A stretch of 64,000 nt of DNA, taken from positions 1-64,000 of IMG/VR virus record IMGVR_UViG_3300042923_000319. One strand, written 5' to 3'. A program made the translations under genes and the position numbers. This DNA comes from a virus. This document shows positions 47,490 through 58,286 of this stretch, in pieces; the first letter of the stretch is position 1, and the number at the start of each line of letters is the position of its first letter. Below the pieces are notes generated by a model that saw only the letters and a list, made by a program, of their open reading frames with translations, ran no database searches and was not told where the DNA came from.

Positions 47490-49100
47490 GCCTGAATGGC
47501 TCTATGAGCGTTGTTTGTTGGTTGTACTTATGATTGGCTATGTATGAGCGCTAAGTATGCGTAGAGGTAGCGTGAGAGTATATTGTCTAAATAGTAGTAT
47601 TCTTATTTAGGTCATAGTAAGCATAGCGATGTACTATGTATTACATTGATTATCATTGGTGTAGTATTGATAAAGCATAGTATGACAGTATGTGTTATAC
47701 GAGATAGCGTTAGTGCGACAAGGTGTAGTACTTGACAGGTGCATTGGATAGCATTGGTAGTTCATTGCTTTACTGTGGTAAAACATAGTAGTCATATATG
47801 ACATCATTGGTAAACTGTGGATAGGCATTAGTGTATCATTGTTGCGCTAGTGTATTAAATAGTAATATTCTTATGTAGTAACATTAGTAATACGACAAAG
47901 CGCAATTCATACCTTGATTTTAGTTAGATGTCTAACTATTATTATGTTAAAACTTGGTAAAACTGCTGTATACTGCACTACTATGCACCATAGTTATACA
48001 TTGGACTACATTGTATGCACATTGGCTATCATCATTCGCTCTATCAGTACTTAACCGCGTATAATTATAGTTATGCGAGGTAACAAACGTTGAAGTACCG
48101 CCATTGCTGCATTTGTGAGTGTTCAATGTATGTCTATGGAGGACACTTTGATAGGCGGTGGGGTGACTTTTGTGATTCCAAAGAGGGTACTTTGTTGTGC
48201 TGAGGGTACGGTATTACCCTACGCTACTCCACAGCTATATTCACTAAAATTTACCATGGAGTACCATCGAACTACATCGAATTTACCACAGATATACATG
48301 TGTTACCTATGGTATACCTATGTATGCATAGAAGGTACACTGGAGCCTTATTGTATCTACATTGGTAAGTCATTGAACTTCATTGGTATACATTGGGTGA
48401 TATTGGAGTATTGTAAACTATCACTGGGTTTACCATAAAACACTTACATAAGTGTATCATCAGAAAAACAAATGACAAAACACTGATATCAATCAGAAAA
48501 ACAAATAGCAAGTATATGGTAAATTACATAGCTCTACACCATTGATTTCATTGGGTTCATAGGTATCATAAGTTTTAACTATGGCTATCATAAAAATTTA
48601 GTATGGTAAAAACATCAAAAATAGGGTGCAAAGGTTCCTAAATCTGACCATTACTATGTAGGGGTTAAACAAGTGGTACTAGGGTATATCAATGAAGAGC
48701 TTAAGGGATACTTAGGATAACCTAAAATATAATCATAATAAATCGTAACGAGTGAAACGAGGTTACGGAGATATACGTAAACGTATATCTCAACTCATCG
48801 CTTACGCTTGAGTTATTCTTAATCAAATAAATATTGACCAGACTTAGAACAGAGCCTAAGATATACTTTGGTAAGCTTTAGTCCAATATAGTTATTCTTA
48901 TGAAATCCGCTTCGCAGTGAACATAAGTTAATCTATAGTATATTAAAGTGATTCAAAGTAACTACTTAGGTATATAACCACATCAGCTTATATTTATTGA
49001 TAATGCGTTCTAGACGAAGCGTAGCGAAGTGATTGTCATCAGACAATCTAACCCACTTTAGCTATATATTGAATACAACCAAATAAACATTTTTTAAATA
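47490..49100. other. Long non-coding region (candidate pac/terminus and origin)
   Basis: No credible ORFs; phased CATTG repeats and hairpins; upstream of the packaging genes. Confidence 0.5.
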
Positions 49101-49156
49101 CACCTTTGATAATTCATTGGTGTATTTTTTATGTTCAAAAACAGGAGGTTATAACA

Positions 49157-50020
49157 ATAATAGATTTAGAACAGCTTGTTCAAACAACATGGTGCTCTGC
49201 AAATAAAGATTTGTATGTGAGCAAAGGATATGTTTACACAAAGATGTTTGATAAATTTTATGTCCATGCTAAAGACTTACCATTAAAATATGCTGTCAAA
49301 GTAAAATATACTTGCAATGCTTGTAGAGAAGAATTTGAAATTAATTACTATAGTTTTAATATTAGTAATAGTTGTTTATGTAACCATTGTGCCACTAAAA
49401 CTATCGTAGCGCAAAAGCTAAAAAAGCCATTTAGTGATGTCAGAGCAGCGTTTTTAGCTCGTGGGTATATATTAATATCACCTAAAGGCGATTACAGGAA
49501 TAGCACAAGTAAATTAGTATGCACATGTAAAGTACATGGGGAATTCACCACAACGTATCAATCTATTTCTATGGGTCAAGGTTGTCCGCAATGCGCCATA
49601 GATAACCATAAAGGCTTAGGCAATCCAAACTACAAAGGTGGCATTACCGAAATCGCAAAATATCTCCGCAACCAATTATCGCCTTGGATTCAACAGCAGT
49701 TACAACGAGCTGGTTGCAAATGCGAAATAACTGGAAAAACAGGAATTTTAAATGTGCATCATATGTATTCTTTTAAAAACATTCTCGATAAAACTATGGA
49801 AGAACTTAATATTGATATTCGTCCAAACATAGGAAACTATAGCGGAGATGAACTTCAACTAATTACAGTAAATTTCCTCAAGAACAACATTCTTCTAGCC
49901 AAACCCATAGTAATGCTAGAATCAATTCATAGAGATTTCCACAAGTTTTGCGGAGGAACAGCTAAAGAAACCACCTATGCACAACTAAGAGAATTCAAGA
50001 AACAACTCTTATCAGCATAA
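49157..50020 (+). CDS. Zn-finger/HNH-like putative homing endonuclease; probable ATA start
   Basis: Multiple CxxC, CEITG...VHHMYSF...HRDFHKFCG; paralog of 62003..62869. Confidence 0.7.
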   Translation: MIDLEQLVQTTWCSANKDLYVSKGYVYTKMFDKFYVHAKDLPLKYAVKVKYTCNACREEFEINYYSFNISNSCLCNHCATKTIVAQKLKKPFSDVRAAFLARGYILISPKGDYRNSTSKLVCTCKVHGEFTTTYQSISMGQGCPQCAIDNHKGLGNPNYKGGITEIAKYLRNQLSPWIQQQLQRAGCKCEITGKTGILNVHHMYSFKNILDKTMEELNIDIRPNIGNYSGDELQLITVNFLKNNILLAKPIVMLESIHRDFHKFCGGTAKETTYAQLREFKKQLLSA

Positions 50021-50056
50021 TGTCTACACATCAGTATACAATGAAAGGAGATACCA

Positions 50057-50695
50057 ATGTCAGAACCAAAGAAAAGACCAGGTAGTAAAGCCAGACCTCC
50101 ATTGAATACATCAGCGAAATCACCATTAGCTGGACTCGCAGTTAACCGTGTTGACCTATATGGGCTACAAGAGGTTGTCCGAAGATGTAGAGAAGAATAT
50201 CATTGGGGTTCGATGAAGATCAAAAAATACATCGAAGATAACAACTTGCTTCCAGAAGGCAAAGATATAGCGAATATGAGTATCTATCGTTGGTACAAAA
50301 AGAACGTTGACCAACAAGAGGATGACACTACTACAGATTTTGCTGTTGACACTGCTGCTCAAGAGAGGTCAATGCTCAGGGCAATTAACGACAGTATTGA
50401 TACGATAACTGAATGCCTTGATAACATTAGTGATACAAACAATGTAAAGGACATTAAAGACTTGGTGCTTGCTCAAGAAAAGTTAATAGCTCGTAAGCAA
50501 TGTCTCAATGCCACTATAGGCACAACACAAGAAAAAATATACACATACGATAGATTTGCTGAGATCGTCAACACAATGCTTGACGTATCGAAATCATTCG
50601 GAATTGATTTATATGCAGCTATCAAAGCTAGAATCGAAGCTGACCCAATGTTAGCTGAGGGGTTCCGTAGAATTGAGTCCAGTAAGCAAAAATAG
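50057..50695 (+). CDS. Putative terminase small subunit
   Basis: N-terminal HTH-like part plus helical oligomerisation region; first gene of the packaging region. Confidence 0.55.
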   Translation: MSEPKKRPGSKARPPLNTSAKSPLAGLAVNRVDLYGLQEVVRRCREEYHWGSMKIKKYIEDNNLLPEGKDIANMSIYRWYKKNVDQQEDDTTTDFAVDTAAQERSMLRAINDSIDTITECLDNISDTNNVKDIKDLVLAQEKLIARKQCLNATIGTTQEKIYTYDRFAEIVNTMLDVSKSFGIDLYAAIKARIEADPMLAEGFRRIESSKQK

Positions 50696-50767
50696 CCAAC
50701 CCATACAACTACATTGGAAAACTACAAAACACGCTCAAAAGGTCACACAGAGAGCACAGGAGGAATA

Positions 50768-51142
50768 ATGGAACACATTGAGAATGTTATAGCGTTCATG
50801 GATACACCTTATGATTTGCGTGACGAACAAATAAAGGATCGATGTATTGTCTATAGAGCTGACATGGTGCGTAGCGACACAATATCGATGAGAGTCATGG
50901 GTATTGGCAGTAAAATCTGTGGTATCTCATTTAAAGGGCAAAGACCAAGCAGAGTATTAATCAAGGAACCAACTATAAACACTCAGACAGAACTCAAGCA
51001 GTACATTAATTGGCTATCAAAAGAAGTATTGACATGCGCTAGTAATGACTGTGAATTCACCTATGGAACCAACTATACATCAACGAAATTCACCGGGCGT
51101 AAAGAGTTCAGTGAATGGCTATCTAGGGTGCGCCAATGCTAG
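50768..51142 (+). CDS. Degenerate terminase-ATPase fragment paralog
   Basis: GIGSKICG...GQRP...WLSKEV...FTYGT aligns with TerL GTGSKIRG...GRRP...WLTKAV...FIIGT. Confidence 0.65.
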   Translation: MEHIENVIAFMDTPYDLRDEQIKDRCIVYRADMVRSDTISMRVMGIGSKICGISFKGQRPSRVLIKEPTINTQTELKQYINWLSKEVLTCASNDCEFTYGTNYTSTKFTGRKEFSEWLSRVRQC

Positions 51143-51447
51143 TCTTATTAATCACCGACTCAAACTCTCATTTCTTCGACGATGCCAACGTTATACCAAC
51201 AGATATTTTAATGCTTCGACGCTCTACCGATGACCTATCCAATGTATCCGACACTGACGGCAATGTTCCAGACAAAGTTATTATTGATGCTGAAGCAAAT
51301 GTTGATTTCCAAAGATACGTTGATTTAGCAAAGACACTCAAAGATGACGCAGAAATAATCTATAGAATTTCTGGTGTAAATCGAATAGCAACAAGGAATT
51401 TGTTCATAGAAATGTTAGAAATAATTTTAGGGAAAAGAGGAATGTAA
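51136..51447 (+). CDS. Hypothetical protein, possible P-loop fragment
   Basis: DGNVPDKVIID resembles the RGxRPxxxxxD Walker B approach. Confidence 0.5.
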   Translation: MLVLLITDSNSHFFDDANVIPTDILMLRRSTDDLSNVSDTDGNVPDKVIIDAEANVDFQRYVDLAKTLKDDAEIIYRISGVNRIATRNLFIEMLEIILGKRGM

Positions 51448-51450
51448 ATA

Positions 51451-51738
51451 ATGGCAGCGATATCAACAGCAACACCAATACAGATTAACGGGAGCATTAC
51501 GGCTTCAACTGACACAGAAGCAACGATAACAGCAACAGAAATGCTCGTGGGTAGTGTTTACTATACATTCGTTATACCAAAGACATTCACAGTAGCAACC
51601 ACAGACTACTCAACGACAGCACTAAGTCCATCCGAAGAAGCAGTCGCAGTAAAGCTAGCAACTGGCACAACGCTACAATCGAATTTAACACAGATTGAAA
51701 AATTGGCATCAACGAGTTTAGCACAGAAATTAGCATGA
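51451..51738 (+). CDS. Thr/Ala-rich hypothetical protein
   Basis: ORF with GAGG RBS. Confidence 0.5.
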   Translation: MAAISTATPIQINGSITASTDTEATITATEMLVGSVYYTFVIPKTFTVATTDYSTTALSPSEEAVAVKLATGTTLQSNLTQIEKLASTSLAQKLA

Positions 51739-52838
51739 TGGAAGACCAATACAGACCACCGAATGTAACGTTAGAATCTTATGATTGCGGTAGATTCAAG
51801 GTATTTATCGATGGTAAACATATGGAAACTGTACAGAAATTCAACATATCTGGTGGTATTGGTGAATGTTCATTAGTTAAACTTGAGTTTCTAGCGGATG
51901 TAAATATTAAATAAATCGTTGGAGGTACAATGATACCAAAAGGTACAATCATAAAATGTCCAGAGTGTGGCACTAAACTTTATAAGTACACCGCAGATAT
52001 AACTGGTGATATGAATATGGTTATTGTACACATGCAATCAATGTTTTATTATGGTAAACAACCAAAGTTAGACATGAGTAGTTTAACAAGACAACATTGT
52101 TATAAGTGTGGTCATTCATTTGATATGCGTGATTTAGAAAGAGATGTTTACATGAAATTCAAGTACAACACGGAGGTACAATGAATAATCCAATTACAAA
52201 CCTAAGACTAGCTGCTGAAAAGTTCAAATTGGACTATGATAAACAATCATTTTGCGAAGTCGAGCTTGAATGTTACAAAAAGGGCATCGAAATAGAAGAT
52301 GACATAATCCCTACTATCGATTATATAAAAGAAATATGTAAGAAAACTGGGTATGAGCTATGGATTAAAAAGGGTGGACTTAAATTCTACAAAGCTATAT
52401 CGAGACAGACCTTTGATTTACCATTTATGTTACTCGAAGAAGGCGATATTATAACCTTTGGTACTAGTACTGGTATTTCCTATAAGTATACTGTGTTTGC
52501 TACTAATTATGTTGATGGCAGACTTAAGGTGACTGTTGAATGAGCAAGGAAGAACAAGATCGTCACAAGCGGAAAACCATAAAGAAACCACGGAATATCA
52601 AGAAATACATCAAAGAAAAGCTCAATAAACTTGAGTACATGGAGGAAATCTATGGAAAACGATGAATTAATCGAGGTTATCGATGATCTACGTGAAGAAA
52701 ATGAATACTTAAGAGATACATTGATTGTAGCATTGGTTAAACTGTCGAAATATCAGCAGGAAGAGATCGATGGCTATGATAAATACTTCGCTGGATTCGG
52801 CAATAGGTCTAACTAAGGTGTCTACTGATGTGTAGACA

Positions 52839-53105
52839 ATGTAACTGGAGTAGCTACCAGTGAGGGCGTGGCGGTAGTCACAAATACTGTGATAGCGTGG
52901 ATGGGGCAATTGCAGACTTTATTACAGACGCTGCATCGACACGGTGGCAGCGATGGTGTGCGGCGATTCGGGTTGGGGCTGTGCATATTCTAGTCTTAAC
53001 CTTCATTGGTTGACATTGCCTGGGGTTACACCTGGGTTACATAGCGGGGTGGAAATCTGCGGATGACACTTTGGATACTCGGATGCGTCTGAGTATCCTT
53101 ACGCT
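52839..53105 (+). ncRNA. Candidate structured ncRNA (about 265 nt)
   Basis: GC-rich, ORF-free, several hairpins with GU pairs, abuts tRNA-Trp. Confidence 0.55.
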
Positions 53106-53110
53106 GATAT

Positions 53111-53185
53111 GATTCGATAGTTCAATGGTAGAACAGCGGTCTCCAAAACCGTTAGATCAAGGTTCAAATCCTTGTCGGATCGCCA
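53111..53185 (+). tRNA. tRNA-Trp(CCA)
   Basis: Acceptor GATTCGA/TCGGATC, anticodon loop CTCCAAA, GGTTCAAATCC T-arm, encoded CCA. Confidence 0.9.
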
Positions 53186-53187
53186 AT

Positions 53188-53261
53188 GCTTCCTTAGTTT
53201 AACGGTAGAACGAGGATTTTGTAAATCTTTAGCGATAGTTCAACTCTATCAGGAAGCTCCA
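53188..53261 (+). tRNA. tRNA-Thr(TGT)
   Basis: Acceptor GCTTCCT/AGGAAGC, anticodon loop TTTGTAA, T-loop TTCAACT, encoded CCA. Confidence 0.85.
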
Positions 53262-53346
53262 AAATAAAACTAAATATTAACTAAGATATAAACCGAGAGC
53301 ACCAGTGAGAAATCGCTGGTGCTCTTATTAATCTAAGGAGGAAACA

Positions 53347-53604
53347 ATGTTAAAGATTGAAAAACTTCAAGAAGCTTTAGAGGCAACAAGAGGTAGAGGT
53401 AATACGACACATTTGCTAAAGTCGGTTCAAGGAACCAATGTTGACTTGTTGGTTGATACTGAATGCACTAGAGAGATTTTAGGACATACAAATGTAGTCT
53501 CGTTTAAATCGTACAGTCCCGACAGAGCATTTGTGCTAGATAACAACGTTATACAAGATGCAATTAATGAAGCATTAGAACTAATCGCTAGATTAAGAAA
53601 ATAG
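53347..53604 (+). CDS. Small protein with degenerate Walker A-like motif
   Basis: RGRGNTT...FVLDN; strong RBS; flanked by hairpins. Confidence 0.55.
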   Translation: MLKIEKLQEALEATRGRGNTTHLLKSVQGTNVDLLVDTECTREILGHTNVVSFKSYSPDRAFVLDNNVIQDAINEALELIARLRK

Positions 53605-53655
53605 CTTGAGTATATACTCCGAGGGACTCATGAGAAATCATGGGTCTTTTTTGTA

Positions 53656-53770
53656 TGCACTCAAGTGCAGAGCGTTGGGTTGATCCCCTGATGCTAGGGT
53701 GTTTGGTACGTCTCCGCTGAACACCCTAAAACAATTTTATGGAGACACAGAATAAAACGAATGGGGCGAT
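53656..53770 (+). promoter_or_regulatory. Structured leader (two stem-loops plus pseudoknot) upstream of the BRO-HNH gene
   Basis: 12-bp stem 53695-53728; loop GTCTCC complementary to GGAGAC at 53741-53746. Confidence 0.55.
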
Positions 53771-53775
53771 GTTAA

Positions 53776-54759
53776 ATGACAAAAGAATTACAAGTGTTTA
53801 AACAGCAGGAAGTTTTAGGAAAAATGTTCACAATTTATGGTGATGCAGAAAATCCATTATTCTTAGCTAAAGAGGTTGCTGAGTGGATTGATTATAACAA
53901 AGACAAAATCGGGCAAATGCTTAAGACTATTGACGAGGAAGAAAAAGAAACCTCACCGATATTTTATAGCGGTCAGGTTAGAGATATGTGGTTTATCAGT
54001 GAAGATGGTCTTTATGAAGTACTTATGCAATCACATAAACCAATCGCTAAACAATTTAAGAAACAAGTCAAATTTATCCTTAAGACCATCCGCAAAACTG
54101 GTCACTACGAAACACCAGAATACAAAATTATGATAGAAACCCAAAATGAACTTAAAGAAATGAAAACAATGTTAATTGAAAGTGGTGTCATAGGAGCTTA
54201 TGTGAATCCAACCCACTTATTTTATAGACTCAATGTATCATACAAAATAACTACTAATGATAATAGTCACAGGGGTATCCACGAAGCCATCGGTAATTAC
54301 TTTGGAGTTAACGTTCCATATAGTGATCAAATCCCAGTTACATTAAGAGACTACTTGATCGACAAAGTTGGTATCGAAGAAATTCGTAAGTTTATCGTAG
54401 GAATCCAATCGGGTAGAATTGTTAAATCTAAACGTGGTAACTATGTAAACCTCAATGGGTTCGGTAGTAATAACTATGAGTGGTCAAAAGTAGTTGATGA
54501 GTTTGATCACAAATGTGCTTACTGCGGAATATCTGAAGATAAAACTAAAATGATTCCAGAGCATATCGTTGCTCAATCAATAATGTCTGAGGAACATCCA
54601 GAATTATGCGACCTTGTTGGTTCTATCGTTCCAGCCTGTGGATGTTGCAATGGCTCCAAGAATACTTCTGATATGGAAACATGGTTCCGCAAGCAATCAT
54701 TCTTCTCAGAGTATAGACTCCAGAAAATCCAAAGACACATCAAAAAATATGAACTTTAG
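53776..54759 (+). CDS. BRO-N antirepressor-like protein with C-terminal HNH nuclease
   Basis: PLFLAKEVAEWI, FISEDGLYEVLMQSHKPIAKQFK; CAYCG...EHIV...ACGCCNGSK. Confidence 0.85.
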   Translation: MTKELQVFKQQEVLGKMFTIYGDAENPLFLAKEVAEWIDYNKDKIGQMLKTIDEEEKETSPIFYSGQVRDMWFISEDGLYEVLMQSHKPIAKQFKKQVKFILKTIRKTGHYETPEYKIMIETQNELKEMKTMLIESGVIGAYVNPTHLFYRLNVSYKITTNDNSHRGIHEAIGNYFGVNVPYSDQIPVTLRDYLIDKVGIEEIRKFIVGIQSGRIVKSKRGNYVNLNGFGSNNYEWSKVVDEFDHKCAYCGISEDKTKMIPEHIVAQSIMSEEHPELCDLVGSIVPACGCCNGSKNTSDMETWFRKQSFFSEYRLQKIQRHIKKYEL

Positions 54760-54806
54760 AAGCCACCGAACAAACGGTGGTTATTTTTTATTTATAGGAG
54801 GATTCA

Positions 54807-55346
54807 ATGACTTGTATCGTTGGCTTTATTGATAAAGGTAATGTTTATATCGGCGGAGATTCAGCGTCATCCAACCAATCAATCATAAGGACTCGCAAAG
54901 CACCAAAGGTATTTACTAATGGCGAATTTCTAATTGGCACAAGTGGTTCATTTCGTATGAGTGGCCTTATTAGATATTCATTCAATCCACCTAAATATAT
55001 TGAAGCTGCACATGGAGATATCTGTAGATATATGTGTACAGCTTTTGTTGATTCGTTACGTAACTGCTTGACAAGCGGTGGATTCGCGAAGGTTTCATGC
55101 AATGAAGAGACTGGCGGATTTTTCTTAGTTGGATTCAAGGGAAAGTTGTTCACAGTCGAGGCTGATTACCAAGTTGAAGAATGTGTTGATCAATACACTT
55201 CTATTGGTTCTGGAGAATCATACGCCCTCGGTTCGCTCTTTAGCTCAACCAAAGAAACACCAAAAGAAAAGATAGAAGATGCATTAAAATGTGCTGAATA
55301 CTTTAATCCATTCGTTAGAAGTCCATTCACAATACTGAAGATATAG
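54807..55346 (+). CDS. Ntn-hydrolase (HslV/proteasome-like) protein
   Basis: N-terminal Thr (MTCIVG), GGDS, KVF, SIGSG. Confidence 0.75.
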   Translation: MTCIVGFIDKGNVYIGGDSASSNQSIIRTRKAPKVFTNGEFLIGTSGSFRMSGLIRYSFNPPKYIEAAHGDICRYMCTAFVDSLRNCLTSGGFAKVSCNEETGGFFLVGFKGKLFTVEADYQVEECVDQYTSIGSGESYALGSLFSSTKETPKEKIEDALKCAEYFNPFVRSPFTILKI

Positions 55347-55359
55347 GAGGTGAGAACCA

Positions 55360-56970
55360 ATGGATGACATAGTACTACATGACTTATTCCTCGGTTCAGA
55401 CGAAACAAGACCAGATGAAGATCAGCCACTCAAAGAACAATGTAGATATTCACTAAAACTATTCTGTGAAACCTATCTCAAACATTGGTTCTACGCTCCA
55501 TGGTGTGGTTTTCACTTAGAAATTATCCAGATGCTCGAAGATTTAACCTTTGCTAAAACACGAAGAAAACAATACACAGCAGTGGCAAGTCCTAGAAAGC
55601 ATGCCAAGACAACCATAGTGTCCAAGGCTTATTCATTATGGCTTATATGTTACAAACATGAGCCAAACATCGTACTTATCGCTGATACCATCGGTCAATC
55701 GTGTGAGTACTTAGATGACGTTAAGAATGAGATTGAATCCAATGATTTACTCATAGCTGACTTCGGTAATCTCATGGGTAAACTGTGGAGAAACAATCAG
55801 ATCACAACGGCAAACGAAGTCACTATAACATGCAAAGGTACTGGCAGTAAAATTCGTGGGATGGCTAAGAGAGGTCGTCGTCCAGGTATTTTCATAATGG
55901 ATGAATTGGAAAATGATGAGTTCGTAGAAAACGCCAATATCCGTAAGAAACTTCGCTCATGGCTCACTAAGGCTGTCATTCCATCATCCTGTGAAACTGG
56001 TAAGTTCTTCATTATCGGAACCATCATGCATGAAGATAGTCTTTTGAATAATCTTCTGAACAGCAAAGAGTTCTCTTATTGGAAGCGATATTTTTACCAA
56101 GCAGTCCAAGAGTTCAGCGAAAGTCCTCTGTGGGATGAATGGGTAGCCATCATGGAAAACGAGGAATCCAATGATTCCGAGGAACAAGCCTACCAGTTCT
56201 ATAAGGATCACAGAGATGAGATGCTGAAGGGTGTTAAGGCTCTCTGGATGGACAACTATGATGATTACTACTATGACATGATGGTAATGAAGTGGTCTGA
56301 CCCAGATGCATTCTCAAGTGAAGAAATGAATGTCGCGATATCACCAGAAAATCAAACGTTTACCGCAGAGTTGCTTGATAGTGTTACATTCGATGATATT
56401 CCATGCAAGATAACCGAGATAAAAATTGGTGTAGACCCTAGCCTTGGCAAGAGTAAGAAAAGCGATCTATCGTCAATCTGTGCTGTAGCCAGAGGTGAAA
56501 ACGGCAAACTCTACGTTATTGACGTTGACGCCAAGCGCAGGAAGGTTGATATTCTCGTCGAGGATGTCTTTAGTATGGCTATGAAATACAATGATAAATT
56601 ATCGAAAATCAATATTGAAGCCAACGGATTGCAACATTTGTTCTTAGAACAATTTGTGATGGCTAGTGAGAAAACTGGCGTTTACTTTGCATACGAAGGT
56701 ATCAAAACAGATAGCAATAAGGAAATCAAGATTCAAGCATTGGCTCCTAAGATGAAGCAAGGCTCACTTAAGATACACCGTAGACTCAAGACATTACGCA
56801 ATGAATTACTGGCGTTTCCAAAAGGCAAGACTGATGACATCATGGATTCTGTTTGTTTGGCTATTGATGGTGCGTTCACATCTTCTGGATTCTGCTTCAC
56901 ATCATTGCCAGGATCAAGAGAGTCTCATCGACACGTAGGTATCAATAATTTTCTTAATAGGAGGAGGTGA
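55360..56970 (+). CDS. terL: Terminase large subunit
   Basis: PRKHAKT Walker A, FIMDE Walker B, IGT motif III, GVDPS and DDIMDS nuclease residues. Confidence 0.95.
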   Translation: MDDIVLHDLFLGSDETRPDEDQPLKEQCRYSLKLFCETYLKHWFYAPWCGFHLEIIQMLEDLTFAKTRRKQYTAVASPRKHAKTTIVSKAYSLWLICYKHEPNIVLIADTIGQSCEYLDDVKNEIESNDLLIADFGNLMGKLWRNNQITTANEVTITCKGTGSKIRGMAKRGRRPGIFIMDELENDEFVENANIRKKLRSWLTKAVIPSSCETGKFFIIGTIMHEDSLLNNLLNSKEFSYWKRYFYQAVQEFSESPLWDEWVAIMENEESNDSEEQAYQFYKDHRDEMLKGVKALWMDNYDDYYYDMMVMKWSDPDAFSSEEMNVAISPENQTFTAELLDSVTFDDIPCKITEIKIGVDPSLGKSKKSDLSSICAVARGENGKLYVIDVDAKRRKVDILVEDVFSMAMKYNDKLSKINIEANGLQHLFLEQFVMASEKTGVYFAYEGIKTDSNKEIKIQALAPKMKQGSLKIHRRLKTLRNELLAFPKGKTDDIMDSVCLAIDGAFTSSGFCFTSLPGSRESHRHVGINNFLNRRR

Positions 56971-56975
56971 TAAAA

Positions 56976-58286
56976 CTGAAATGGTATCAAAAATTATTCT
57001 CAGCAAGACCTAGATCAATCCCTGCTCCAACAGCAGAAACATCCGAAGCAGACTCATGGGGACTTAATAAGTTGCTCCCACGCAGATATCGAACCTATGG
57101 GTTAAACAAGAATAAGCAAAGGCAATTACGACAGTTATCTCGTAGCGGTATCATAAGGCGTGGTATTGAGCGAATTAAGCGTGGCGTAAAGAACCTCGAT
57201 TATGAGCTTGAAATCCAAGGTAAGATGAGTAACAAACAACAGGAACAATTAAGAGCAGCCATTGATACAGTTCTGCAATCACCAAATATAATCCATGATT
57301 ATGATGCGTTTATCGACATGATACTTGAGGATTTGATAGTGCTTGATGCAGGAGTATTTAATGTAGTTAAGGGTGGCAATCCAATGCGACCTCTCTTTTT
57401 ATACCCTGTTGACTCTATGACAATTGAGATACTACAACCGTATGACTTTACTAACCCCAATGGTGATCGATATGTACAACGAGCATCATGGGCTATCGAC
57501 GAGAAAACGTTTAGTACAACCGATATGGCATATCTACAGATCAACCACTTTACTGATACACCGTATGGCTTAAGTCCAATTGAGAAACTATGGCGATATC
57601 TTAACTACTTTATGGATGCTCTTGATAATGCTTCTGATATCGCATCTGCTGATACACCAAAATTCATAGTCGGTCTTAAGAATGCCGAAGATGGAAAACT
57701 CAAGAAATTCCAAGAATACATGCTTAATGAAATCGAAGGAACTGGACACATACCGATAGTTGGCGGTGAGGTTGATAGTAAGCAAATAGGAGCTATCAAT
57801 AGTGATTCATTATTCCTTGAATGGCAAAAGTTCTTACTGACACTCGTCGCTAAATGCTTTGACTTACCAGAGTCATTCTTTATTACTGCTGATGTTAATG
57901 ACCGCAATAACTTATCTGAGGTTGAACAGCAGGTACTCATGGAAGCTGTTAAACCTTATGCAAAGGTTATTCAAAGGGCTATTAATGTAAACGTCATACA
58001 GGCTATGGGAATTTACAATGTTAAATTCAAGTTTAAATATGACGAAACAGAAACAGAGAAGAAAACCAAGGAAGACAGAATCAGTAACAAATATTTACGT
58101 GGTGTTATTACTCAGAATCAAGCATTGGTTGAACTTGGTTATCAATTGAGCACATCGAAATACGCTGATTTAACCATAACTGAAGCCAAGGCTAAAATCA
58201 ATAAAGACTTTGCTGTAAACACTGGCGGATTTAACGGTCAAGGTTCAGCAAAAGACAATAGTAATCCAGAAACTAAGACGGGTTAA
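56976..58286 (+). CDS. Portal protein; probable CTG start
   Basis: L.P.D...I, YGLSPIE, FLEWQ motifs; follows terL; the GTG at 56967 lies within the SD. Confidence 0.85.
   Translation: MKWYQKLFSARPRSIPAPTAETSEADSWGLNKLLPRRYRTYGLNKNKQRQLRQLSRSGIIRRGIERIKRGVKNLDYELEIQGKMSNKQQEQLRAAIDTVLQSPNIIHDYDAFIDMILEDLIVLDAGVFNVVKGGNPMRPLFLYPVDSMTIEILQPYDFTNPNGDRYVQRASWAIDEKTFSTTDMAYLQINHFTDTPYGLSPIEKLWRYLNYFMDALDNASDIASADTPKFIVGLKNAEDGKLKKFQEYMLNEIEGTGHIPIVGGEVDSKQIGAINSDSLFLEWQKFLLTLVAKCFDLPESFFITADVNDRNNLSEVEQQVLMEAVKPYAKVIQRAINVNVIQAMGIYNVKFKFKYDETETEKKTKEDRISNKYLRGVITQNQALVELGYQLSTSKYADLTITEAKAKINKDFAVNTGGFNGQGSAKDNSNPETKTG

Follow-up and report, generated by a model that had tools for sequence, protein, structure and literature searches.

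The window analysed here covers positions 1 to 64,000 of an IMG/VR virus record (IMGVR_UViG_3300042923_000319) that measures 72,676 bases and is complete by CheckV estimate. The genes of its packaging region, from an HNH endonuclease gene through the portal gene, all lie on the + strand, and the genes for the small and the large terminase subunit, terS and terL, are separated by an island of small genes. In this study, we describe the first gene of this island, at 50768..51142, which we call the mini-TerL gene. Its product, hereafter the mini protein, is very probably a stand-alone offshoot of the ATPase core of TerL that is catalytically dead, lacks the P-loop, belongs to a rare family of six members and is encoded by an accessory gene in the terS-terL island. 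A first-pass annotation, made from the sequence alone, had described three open reading frames (ORFs) of this interval (50768..51142, 51136..51447 and 53347..53604) as degenerate mini-copies of the terminase ATPase and possible immune decoys. What stands of this set is one inactive stand-alone terminase ATPase derivative, and the other two ORFs are not TerL-like.

Homology to the large terminase

The mini protein aligns with the TerL of the same phage, as had been noticed by eye. By BLASTP, the two proteins share 28% identity over 94 amino acids (E 2e-5), corresponding to TerL residues 151-241. A TerL profile, built from ten TerLs that are 57-100% identical, was run with all filters off against the 1017 stop-to-stop ORFs of at least 30 amino acids that a six-frame reading of the window yields. 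TerL itself ranked first and the mini ORF second (E 5.2e-6); the third ORF had an E value of 0.35. Comparison of the mini family with the TerL family by hhalign gave a probability of 93.4% (E 2.6e-7) over 67 columns. A hidden Markov model (HMM) of the mini family matches 61 of 63 TerLs at the same segment, and several foreign TerLs outscore the resident one, with 35.9 bits for the TerL of locus L006 versus 25.1 bits for the TerL of this phage. When run against 20,934 six-frame ORFs from 83 loci (E <= 1), this HMM retrieved full-length TerLs, the best being that of L006 (E 2.4e-10), and no small homologue. Its sole match outside TerL was a Bro-N/HNH ORF in L005, at chance level (E 0.063).

Among PDB sequences, the mini-family profile found chance matches only (E >= 0.55) and the TerL profile found none at E <= 10; hence, there is no residue-level sequence bridge to the solved TerLs. 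Nevertheless, the mini ORF is homologous to the TerL ATPase core, by sequence as well as by fold (see below). One might still suppose that the resemblance arose by chance in an ORF unrelated to TerL, given the low identity (28%) and the lack of a Pfam or PHROG match for the mini ORF. However, profile, profile-profile and three structure comparisons independently point to TerL, and we regard this explanation as effectively refuted.

A rare family of small TerL-like proteins

When 1.84 billion cluster representatives were searched exhaustively with phmmer, four small homologues were retrieved besides the mini protein itself (P0053-P0056, with E values of 5.3e-8 to 3.7e-4 relative to the full library). 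A fifth, P0057, of 119 amino acids, came from a profile search among 5.8 billion proteins. The longest contigs recorded for P0053-P0057 measure 62,370, 15,934, 3,896, 1,369 and 72,470 nucleotides. The six members of the family measure 113-167 amino acids and align over their full length, the other five sharing 23-30% identity with the window protein. All six members agree in seven columns (D16, G52, R59, P60, E67, W82 and C95). Maximum-likelihood analysis of the segment common to the six mini proteins and the 42 TerL segments scoring at least 15 bits unites the mini proteins in one group (100/99 support), apart from the 42 TerLs and not nested in the clade of the resident TerL. The tree has long branches and an open backbone, so that we do not place the mini clade within the TerLs and claim no donor lineage. 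Searches for loci encoding mini homologues found none in viral contigs (with a single-protein query), metagenome contigs or genome contigs. One viral-contig locus, L083, was matched by the mini alignment and turned out to encode a full-length TerL.

Motifs kept and lost

The same 42 TerL segments were compared with the six mini proteins at motif level. Eight residues are invariant in all 42 TerLs: R166, G167, R174, P175, D181, W201, G220 and T221. The resident TerL has a deviant P-loop (residues 78-85), followed by the Walker B pair D181-E182 and the coupling motif G220-T221. Half of the eight invariant residues, namely the equivalents of G167, R174, P175 and W201, are kept in every mini protein. 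Moreover, the position after the Walker B aspartate, which is Asp in 40 and Glu in 2 of the TerLs, is Glu in all six mini proteins (E67). The Walker B aspartate itself is lost, being replaced by Glu in three members and by Lys, Phe and Asn in one each; in the window protein, K66-E67 stands against D181-E182 of TerL, the change from DE to KE that the first-pass annotation had read from the sequence. The equivalent of R166 is lost in four of the six members (Cys in three, Gly in one, Arg in the remaining two), and the G-T coupling motif is not conserved. A match between FTYGT of the mini protein and FIIGT of TerL had been pointed out before. It is seen in the window member, but the other five have no G-T, and the MAFFT alignment places it one column out of register.

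The absence of a Walker A motif and of a nuclease domain, both noted earlier, is borne out. None of the six mini proteins contains [AG]x4GK[ST] or even [GA]K[ST]. The mini protein ends at about the equivalent of TerL residue 245, and Pfam Terminase_6C is found only in the 536-amino-acid TerL. Because the P-loop, the Walker B aspartate, the R166 equivalent and the G-T coupling motif are lost, the mini protein appears to be catalytically dead. Judging from its sequence, it should be unable to bind or hydrolyse ATP and would not be an ATPase. This loss of residues appears selective rather than random.

Predicted fold

AlphaFold2, run on the six-sequence alignment, yielded a model with a predicted local distance difference test score (pLDDT) of 85 and a predicted template modelling (TM) score of 0.80, consisting of a seven-strand sheet and two helices. 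In a VIA-align comparison with 48,161 PDB chains, the best match was the PhiV-1 terminase (8dgc_E, Z 6.8, 107 aligned residues), with model residues 1-123 lying on residues 79-218 of the chain. The top 30 also included phi29 gp16 (Z 5.8), phi28 gp11 (5.3), T4 gp17 (5.3) and Sf6 gp2 (5.1). In BFVD, 17 of 50 rows were named terminase (best E 7.5e-4, TM score by query up to 0.62), and an independent model searched in the ESM Atlas retrieved terminase clusters in 5 of 10 rows. The Walker B aspartate of PhiV-1 is D161 (PMC13601566, Fig. 1 legend), so that, on this alignment, the mini protein would begin about 80 residues ahead of Walker B and end about 57 residues beyond it. The model thus corresponds to the predicted ATPase core from downstream of the P-loop helix through the coupling-motif strand, with neither lid nor nuclease domain.

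In the same BFVD search, small uncharacterised phage proteins (e.g. of 117, 136 and 91 amino acids) match the mini model about as well as terminases do, with TM scores by target of 0.46-0.61. Small phage proteins that resemble the terminase core in their predicted structure may thus make up a broader class.

The mini-TerL gene is an intact gene

The open frame extends over 50714..51142. The ATG at 50768 lies 4 nucleotides past AGGAGG, as is the case for other genes of the region, and is the likely start because this Shine-Dalgarno sequence precedes it. The alternatives are the methionine chosen by the gene caller at 50798, which gives 114 amino acids, and a TTG at 50714 without a Shine-Dalgarno sequence. 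The frame scores as coding, with a codon score of 0.11 versus -0.29 and -0.70 for the off frames. No meaningful match to the mini ORF came from Pfam, PHROG, NCBIfam or PADLOC, the PADLOC models covering defence and not anti-defence. The marks of a pseudogene, that is, a broken frame, the lack of a start signal and the lack of conservation as a unit, are not seen here. Instead, the ORF is intact and has a Shine-Dalgarno sequence, five equally small homologues exist, and the predicted fold is confident. Our results indicate that the mini-TerL gene is a selected gene and not debris.

It could still be argued that the gene is a decaying relic, left over from a former or partly duplicated terL, for instance after recombination driven by a homing endonuclease, and that it is open by chance and without function. 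The region is flanked by two HNH endonuclease genes, the codon score lies below that of the neighbours, catalytic residues have been lost and the family is extremely rare, all of which would fit. However, six lineages at 23-30% identity share an architecture of about 115 amino acids, seven invariant columns and a confident, compact predicted fold, and they form one group in the tree. Likewise, the retention of four of the eight TerL-invariant residues in all six members argues for selective loss, and the Shine-Dalgarno sequence is strong. Furthermore, the fragment next to terS is not collinear with the 5' end of terL. For these reasons, we consider a relic improbable.

Genomic setting of the packaging region

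The features of the packaging region are listed in Table 1. Near-identical DNA is present in six soil-metagenome DNA runs from four studies, each of which may be a source of the DNA; no RNA run is listed among them. In INPHARED, from which the record of the window itself may have been left out, neither a megablast search with 49000-57000 nor a tblastn search with the mini ORF found a near relative.

Table 1. Features of the packaging region, with positions in the window
Feature	Position	Strand	Remarks
HNH-type endonuclease with zinc-ribbon/CapR-like motifs	49106..50020	+	phrog_681 E 1.3e-15; directly upstream of terS
18-bp site GTNNAC-N6-GTNNAC	50022..50039	+	just 5' of terS
terS candidate, 212 amino acids	50057..50695	+	homologues upstream of terL in 8 related loci
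Shine-Dalgarno sequence AGGAGG of the mini-TerL gene	50758..50763	+	
mini-TerL gene, 124 amino acids; predicted P-loop-less, catalytically dead TerL ATPase-core derivative	50768..51142	+	equivalent to TerL residues ~100-245
103-amino-acid ORF	51136..51447	+	overlaps the 3' end of the mini-TerL gene by 7 nucleotides; coding-like
six tightly packed small ORFs (95, 59, 84, 120, 41 and 61 amino acids), function unassigned	51451..52816	+	accessory island
second 18-bp site GTNNAC-N6-GTNNAC	52820..52837	+	closes the block
tRNA-Trp(CCA) and tRNA-Thr(TGT)	53111..53261	+	inside the island
85-amino-acid ORF with strong Shine-Dalgarno sequence	53347..53604	+	
Bro-N + HNH endonuclease	53776..54759	+	in 4 related loci, a homologue directly precedes terL
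proteasome-subunit-like protein (Ntn hydrolase), 179 amino acids	54807..55346	+	Pfam PF00227 E 3.2e-5; between the HNH gene and terL
terL, 536 amino acids, complete	55360..56970	+	phrog_38 E 1.6e-83; Terminase_6C; nuclease domain
portal	56967..58286	+	

The location of the mini-TerL gene between terS and terL, as proposed from the sequence, is upheld by related loci. The 212-amino-acid ORF preceding the mini-TerL gene has no Pfam or PHROG match; among named Atlas clusters, Terminase_5 comes closest (0.89), which serves as a lead only. We call it terS because eight of the 83 loci contain a homologue and terL follows downstream of it in each of them, a synteny that supports this assignment. The terS homologue and terL are adjacent in L006, with a gap of 3 nucleotides, and lie about 440 nucleotides apart in L004, L009 and L010. 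A lone Bro-N/HNH gene separates them in L005, L013 and L020, and L003 has a Bro-N/HNH gene together with one small ORF. Thus, the interval measures from 3 nucleotides to about 1.34 kb in the related loci versus 4,664 nucleotides in the window phage. In none of these eight loci does the search of six-frame ORFs find a mini homologue. The mini-TerL gene heads a 4.7-kb accessory, strain-variable island inserted between terS and terL.

Moderate evidence indicates that this island differs between strains of the same soils. Individual genes of the island are left out in contigs of co-occurring relatives, with joints from 51914 to 52172, from 53094 to 53268 (the tRNA pair) and from 54788 to 55343. 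The last of these joints, which leaves out the proteasome-like gene, is found in contigs from two of four soil runs. In co-occurring relatives the 51136..51447 ORF is possibly replaced or absent (51192-51447). These joints were detected at 85% likeness and with short sides (30-89 letters), which is why the evidence is moderate only. For the mini-TerL gene there is no variation to score, since one identical contig spans 49000-51476 in three runs and 49000-51321 in a fourth. The depth of contigs rises strongly only across the tRNAs (53005-53271).

The sequence GTNNAC-N6-GTNNAC occurs in 17 copies in the window, compared with 0.76 expected from shuffles. The copies at 50022 and 52820 bracket a block composed of terS, the mini-TerL gene and small ORFs, which hints at one regulatory unit.

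A possible mimic of the TerL ATPase domain

For the sensing of tailed phages by bacteria, via Avs1-3 and Upx, the terminase is a main molecular pattern. We propose that the mini family has its origin in a large-terminase ATPase core and that the mini-TerL gene is probably transcribed, and presumably expressed, together with terS. The mini protein would then imitate the structure of the TerL ATPase domain and occupy a partner that normally binds this domain. Candidate partners are a terminase sensor of the host, or the TerL or TerS of this phage or of a rival phage. Mimicry directed at a TerL-binding partner is, we infer, the most economical reading, and we put the probability of the explanation as a whole, mimicry included, at roughly 0.6.

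Compared with the TerL ATPase domain (phrog_38/Terminase_6-type; PhiV-1 8dgc_E, T4 gp17 2o0h, Sf6 gp2 4idh, phi29 gp16 5hd9), the mini protein represents a homologous segment with the same core fold region, and shares the invariant Gly, Arg-Pro and Trp as well as the acidic residue that follows the Walker B strand. In contrast to TerL, it measures about 120 instead of about 540 amino acids, has no P-loop/alpha1, lid or nuclease domain, and is accessory rather than universal. There is a precedent for small TerL-ATPase-like proteins in vs.8 of T4 and in Ksap1 and Ksap2, which are described as occupying the terminase pocket of Avs2 (PMC13601566). The first of these, of 219 amino acids, is presented there as an uncharacterised ATPase-like protein that is homologous to the ATPase of the T4 terminase, has Walker A and B motifs and is toxic together with EcAvs2. 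Like the mini protein, vs.8 is a small, stand-alone and lineage-restricted phage protein resembling the TerL ATPase, with similar motifs around the Walker B strand. Unlike vs.8, in whose sequence we also found the Walker A motif, the mini proteins lack Walker A and the Walker B aspartate, and the vs.8 gene does not lie beside terS or terL. By hhalign, the mini family shows only a faint, motif-level match to vs.8, confined to 41 columns at the Walker B strand (7.9%, E 0.0044). As to Ksap1 and Ksap2, the published description gives a secondary structure like that of the terminase ATPase, with a central sheet and flanking helices (PMC13601566), and presents them as small, lineage-restricted phage proteins. 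They differ in that this description reports no sequence homology to TerL and portrays them as activators of sensors; Ksap1, of 74 amino acids, binds and activates KpAvs2, and escaper phages mutate or lose it (PMC11564622). The role of vs.8 and Ksap1/2 is left open in the account of PMC13601566, whose authors suggest anti-defence. Our literature search on truncated large terminases found no paper. In a search combining the large terminase, Avs and decoy, the portions of the papers that were covered used the word decoy for target-decoy filtering in mass spectrometry only. By title or abstract, nothing relevant was found on terminase paralogues or dominant negatives.

The residues that the family keeps bear on a host sensor as the candidate partner. 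As described in PMC13601566, no more than the ATPase domain of TerL is needed to activate EcAvs2 and Upx. In the same account, EcAvs2 contacts Arg154 and Trp179 of PhiV-1 TerL and, via a bridging ATP, the terminase-bound ATP, and Upx is modelled to thread core strands of the unfolded ATPase. Residues R153, D160 and W178 of T7 gp19 are each numbered one less than R154, D161 and W179 of PhiV-1, and the arrangement R-x6-D-[DE]-x-E...W of T7 gp19 is collinear with R174-x6-D181-E182...W201 of the resident TerL. By this collinearity, the two EcAvs2 contacts would correspond to R59 and W82 of the mini protein. The correspondence, drawn from aligned motifs, is suggestive of a sensor-directed role, though these residues are also simply the most conserved ones of TerL.

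One possibility is therefore an immune decoy, that is, a mini protein that binds the terminase pocket of Avs1-3 or Upx without triggering them and so shields the real TerL. The mini protein would mimic the domain that suffices to activate EcAvs2 and Upx, and R59 and W82 would supply the contacts of EcAvs2. Moreover, having no P-loop, it would bring no terminase-bound ATP for the bridging ATP of EcAvs2 (PMC13601566), and a failure to trigger might stem from its inability to hold this ATP, which is part of the surface that is recognised. The accessory, patchy and fast-evolving distribution in a variable island, and the anti-defence role that the authors of PMC13601566 suggest for TerL-like activators, are also in line with a decoy. 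However, vs.8, Ksap1 and Ksap2 are reported to activate Avs2 and not to block it, and phages escape by losing Ksap1 (PMC13601566, PMC11564622). Furthermore, passages of the EVADES preprint name a DNA ligase and a DprA-like protein as anti-Avs proteins, neither of which mimics TerL (10.1101/2025.06.06.658234). On balance, we hold a decoy to be unlikely. More specifically, the mini protein could be a silent competitor for host terminase sensors, presenting the Arg and Trp gripped by Avs2-type sensors while no oligomerisation is triggered; sensors of the Upx type, which thread the strands of the ATPase core, might be sequestered in the same manner. We offer this as a speculative proposal with long odds. 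If true, this would be the first anti-Avs or anti-Upx decoy built from the sensed protein itself, and would suggest an original purpose for vs.8 and Ksap1/2.

A different target for the mini protein would be the packaging motor. It might dock on its own or a rival TerL through the ATPase-ATPase interface, either as a capping, dominant-negative subunit or as an activator that donates an arginine, and would thereby time packaging or exclude competitors. The gene follows terS directly, on the same strand and inside the block bracketed by the 18-bp sites, and the family retains an invariant Arg-Pro as well as an acidic residue at the Walker B strand. Trans-acting arginine fingers are described as indispensable in the terminases of phi29, P74-26 and D6E (PMC7617512). 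The higher scores of the mini-family HMM against several foreign TerLs, such as that of L006, than against the resident one would also be in line with a modulator. On the other hand, the gene is absent from all the related loci examined, and thus is not a core part of the motor. In addition, the other arginine that is invariant in TerL, R166, is lost in four of the six members. A modulator of the motor is accordingly a doubtful candidate in our estimation, and the remaining probability goes to other partners.

Several observations weigh against the explanation proposed here. The VIA-align Z-scores are middling, and generic Rossmann-like methyltransferases likewise reach Z 5-6, so that kinship with terminases is not provable from Z alone. 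Foldseek against PDB returned nothing below E 1e-3 and only weak rows of Rab GTPases. The codon score of the mini-TerL gene (0.11) is below that of most neighbours (about 0.25). The family is so rare, with six clusters, that a weak or lineage-specific function is possible. Finally, the retained Gly, Arg-Pro and Trp are the most conserved residues of the TerL core, and may be kept for folding alone and not as a mimicked surface.

Even so, the mini family is a cleaner case than vs.8 or Ksap1/2, since its homology to TerL is demonstrable, it is predicted with certainty to be non-catalytic and few TerL-invariant residues are kept. A protein of about 120 amino acids is readily synthesised and could serve as a probe for the TerL surface that sensors or motor subunits need, for whether ATP-free mimicry blocks or triggers immunity, and for whether motor fragments are used against rival phages. 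Even if inert, the mini protein documents the terS-terL junction as a hotspot of accessory genes.

Other genes of the terS-terL island

The two ORFs that the first-pass annotation had listed as further, weaker fragments of TerL do not bear this out. Against TerL, 51136..51447 gave a BLASTP E of 12 and an hhalign E of 0.3 (probability 0.2%), and 53347..53604 gave values of 20 and 0.088 (probability 0.65%). Neither is among the 15 ORFs at E <= 10 when the TerL profile is run against the ORFs of the window. Their best local hhalign alignments fall at Walker B for 51136..51447 and at Walker A/beta2 for 53347..53604, which accounts for the likeness noted by eye, but both are at chance level; the latter ORF has a P-loop look-alike without Lys, followed by a strand resembling beta2 of TerL. 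A single-sequence AlphaFold2 model of this 85-amino-acid ORF was unusable (pLDDT 44). We conclude that both ORFs are unrelated small accessory genes. A split ATPase made of the 85-amino-acid ORF and the mini protein was considered and found no support (hhalign E 0.088). A second, broken terL scattered in pieces was also rejected, as the supposed pieces lack collinearity with TerL and only one of the three resembles it.

Eight small ORFs follow the mini-TerL gene up to 52816. The stretch of about 270 nucleotides that separates the second 18-bp site from the tRNAs (52838-53110) contains no ORF. The packaging genes are flanked by two HNH endonuclease genes. Homologues of the Bro-N + HNH gene lie immediately 5' of terL in the IMG/VR loci L005 (8970-9986), L013 (9065-9970), L020 (1196-2107) and L003 (8343-9278), with E values of 4e-53 to 2e-60. 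This conservation suggests that the Bro-N + HNH protein is an HNH partner of the terminase rather than a free homing endonuclease.

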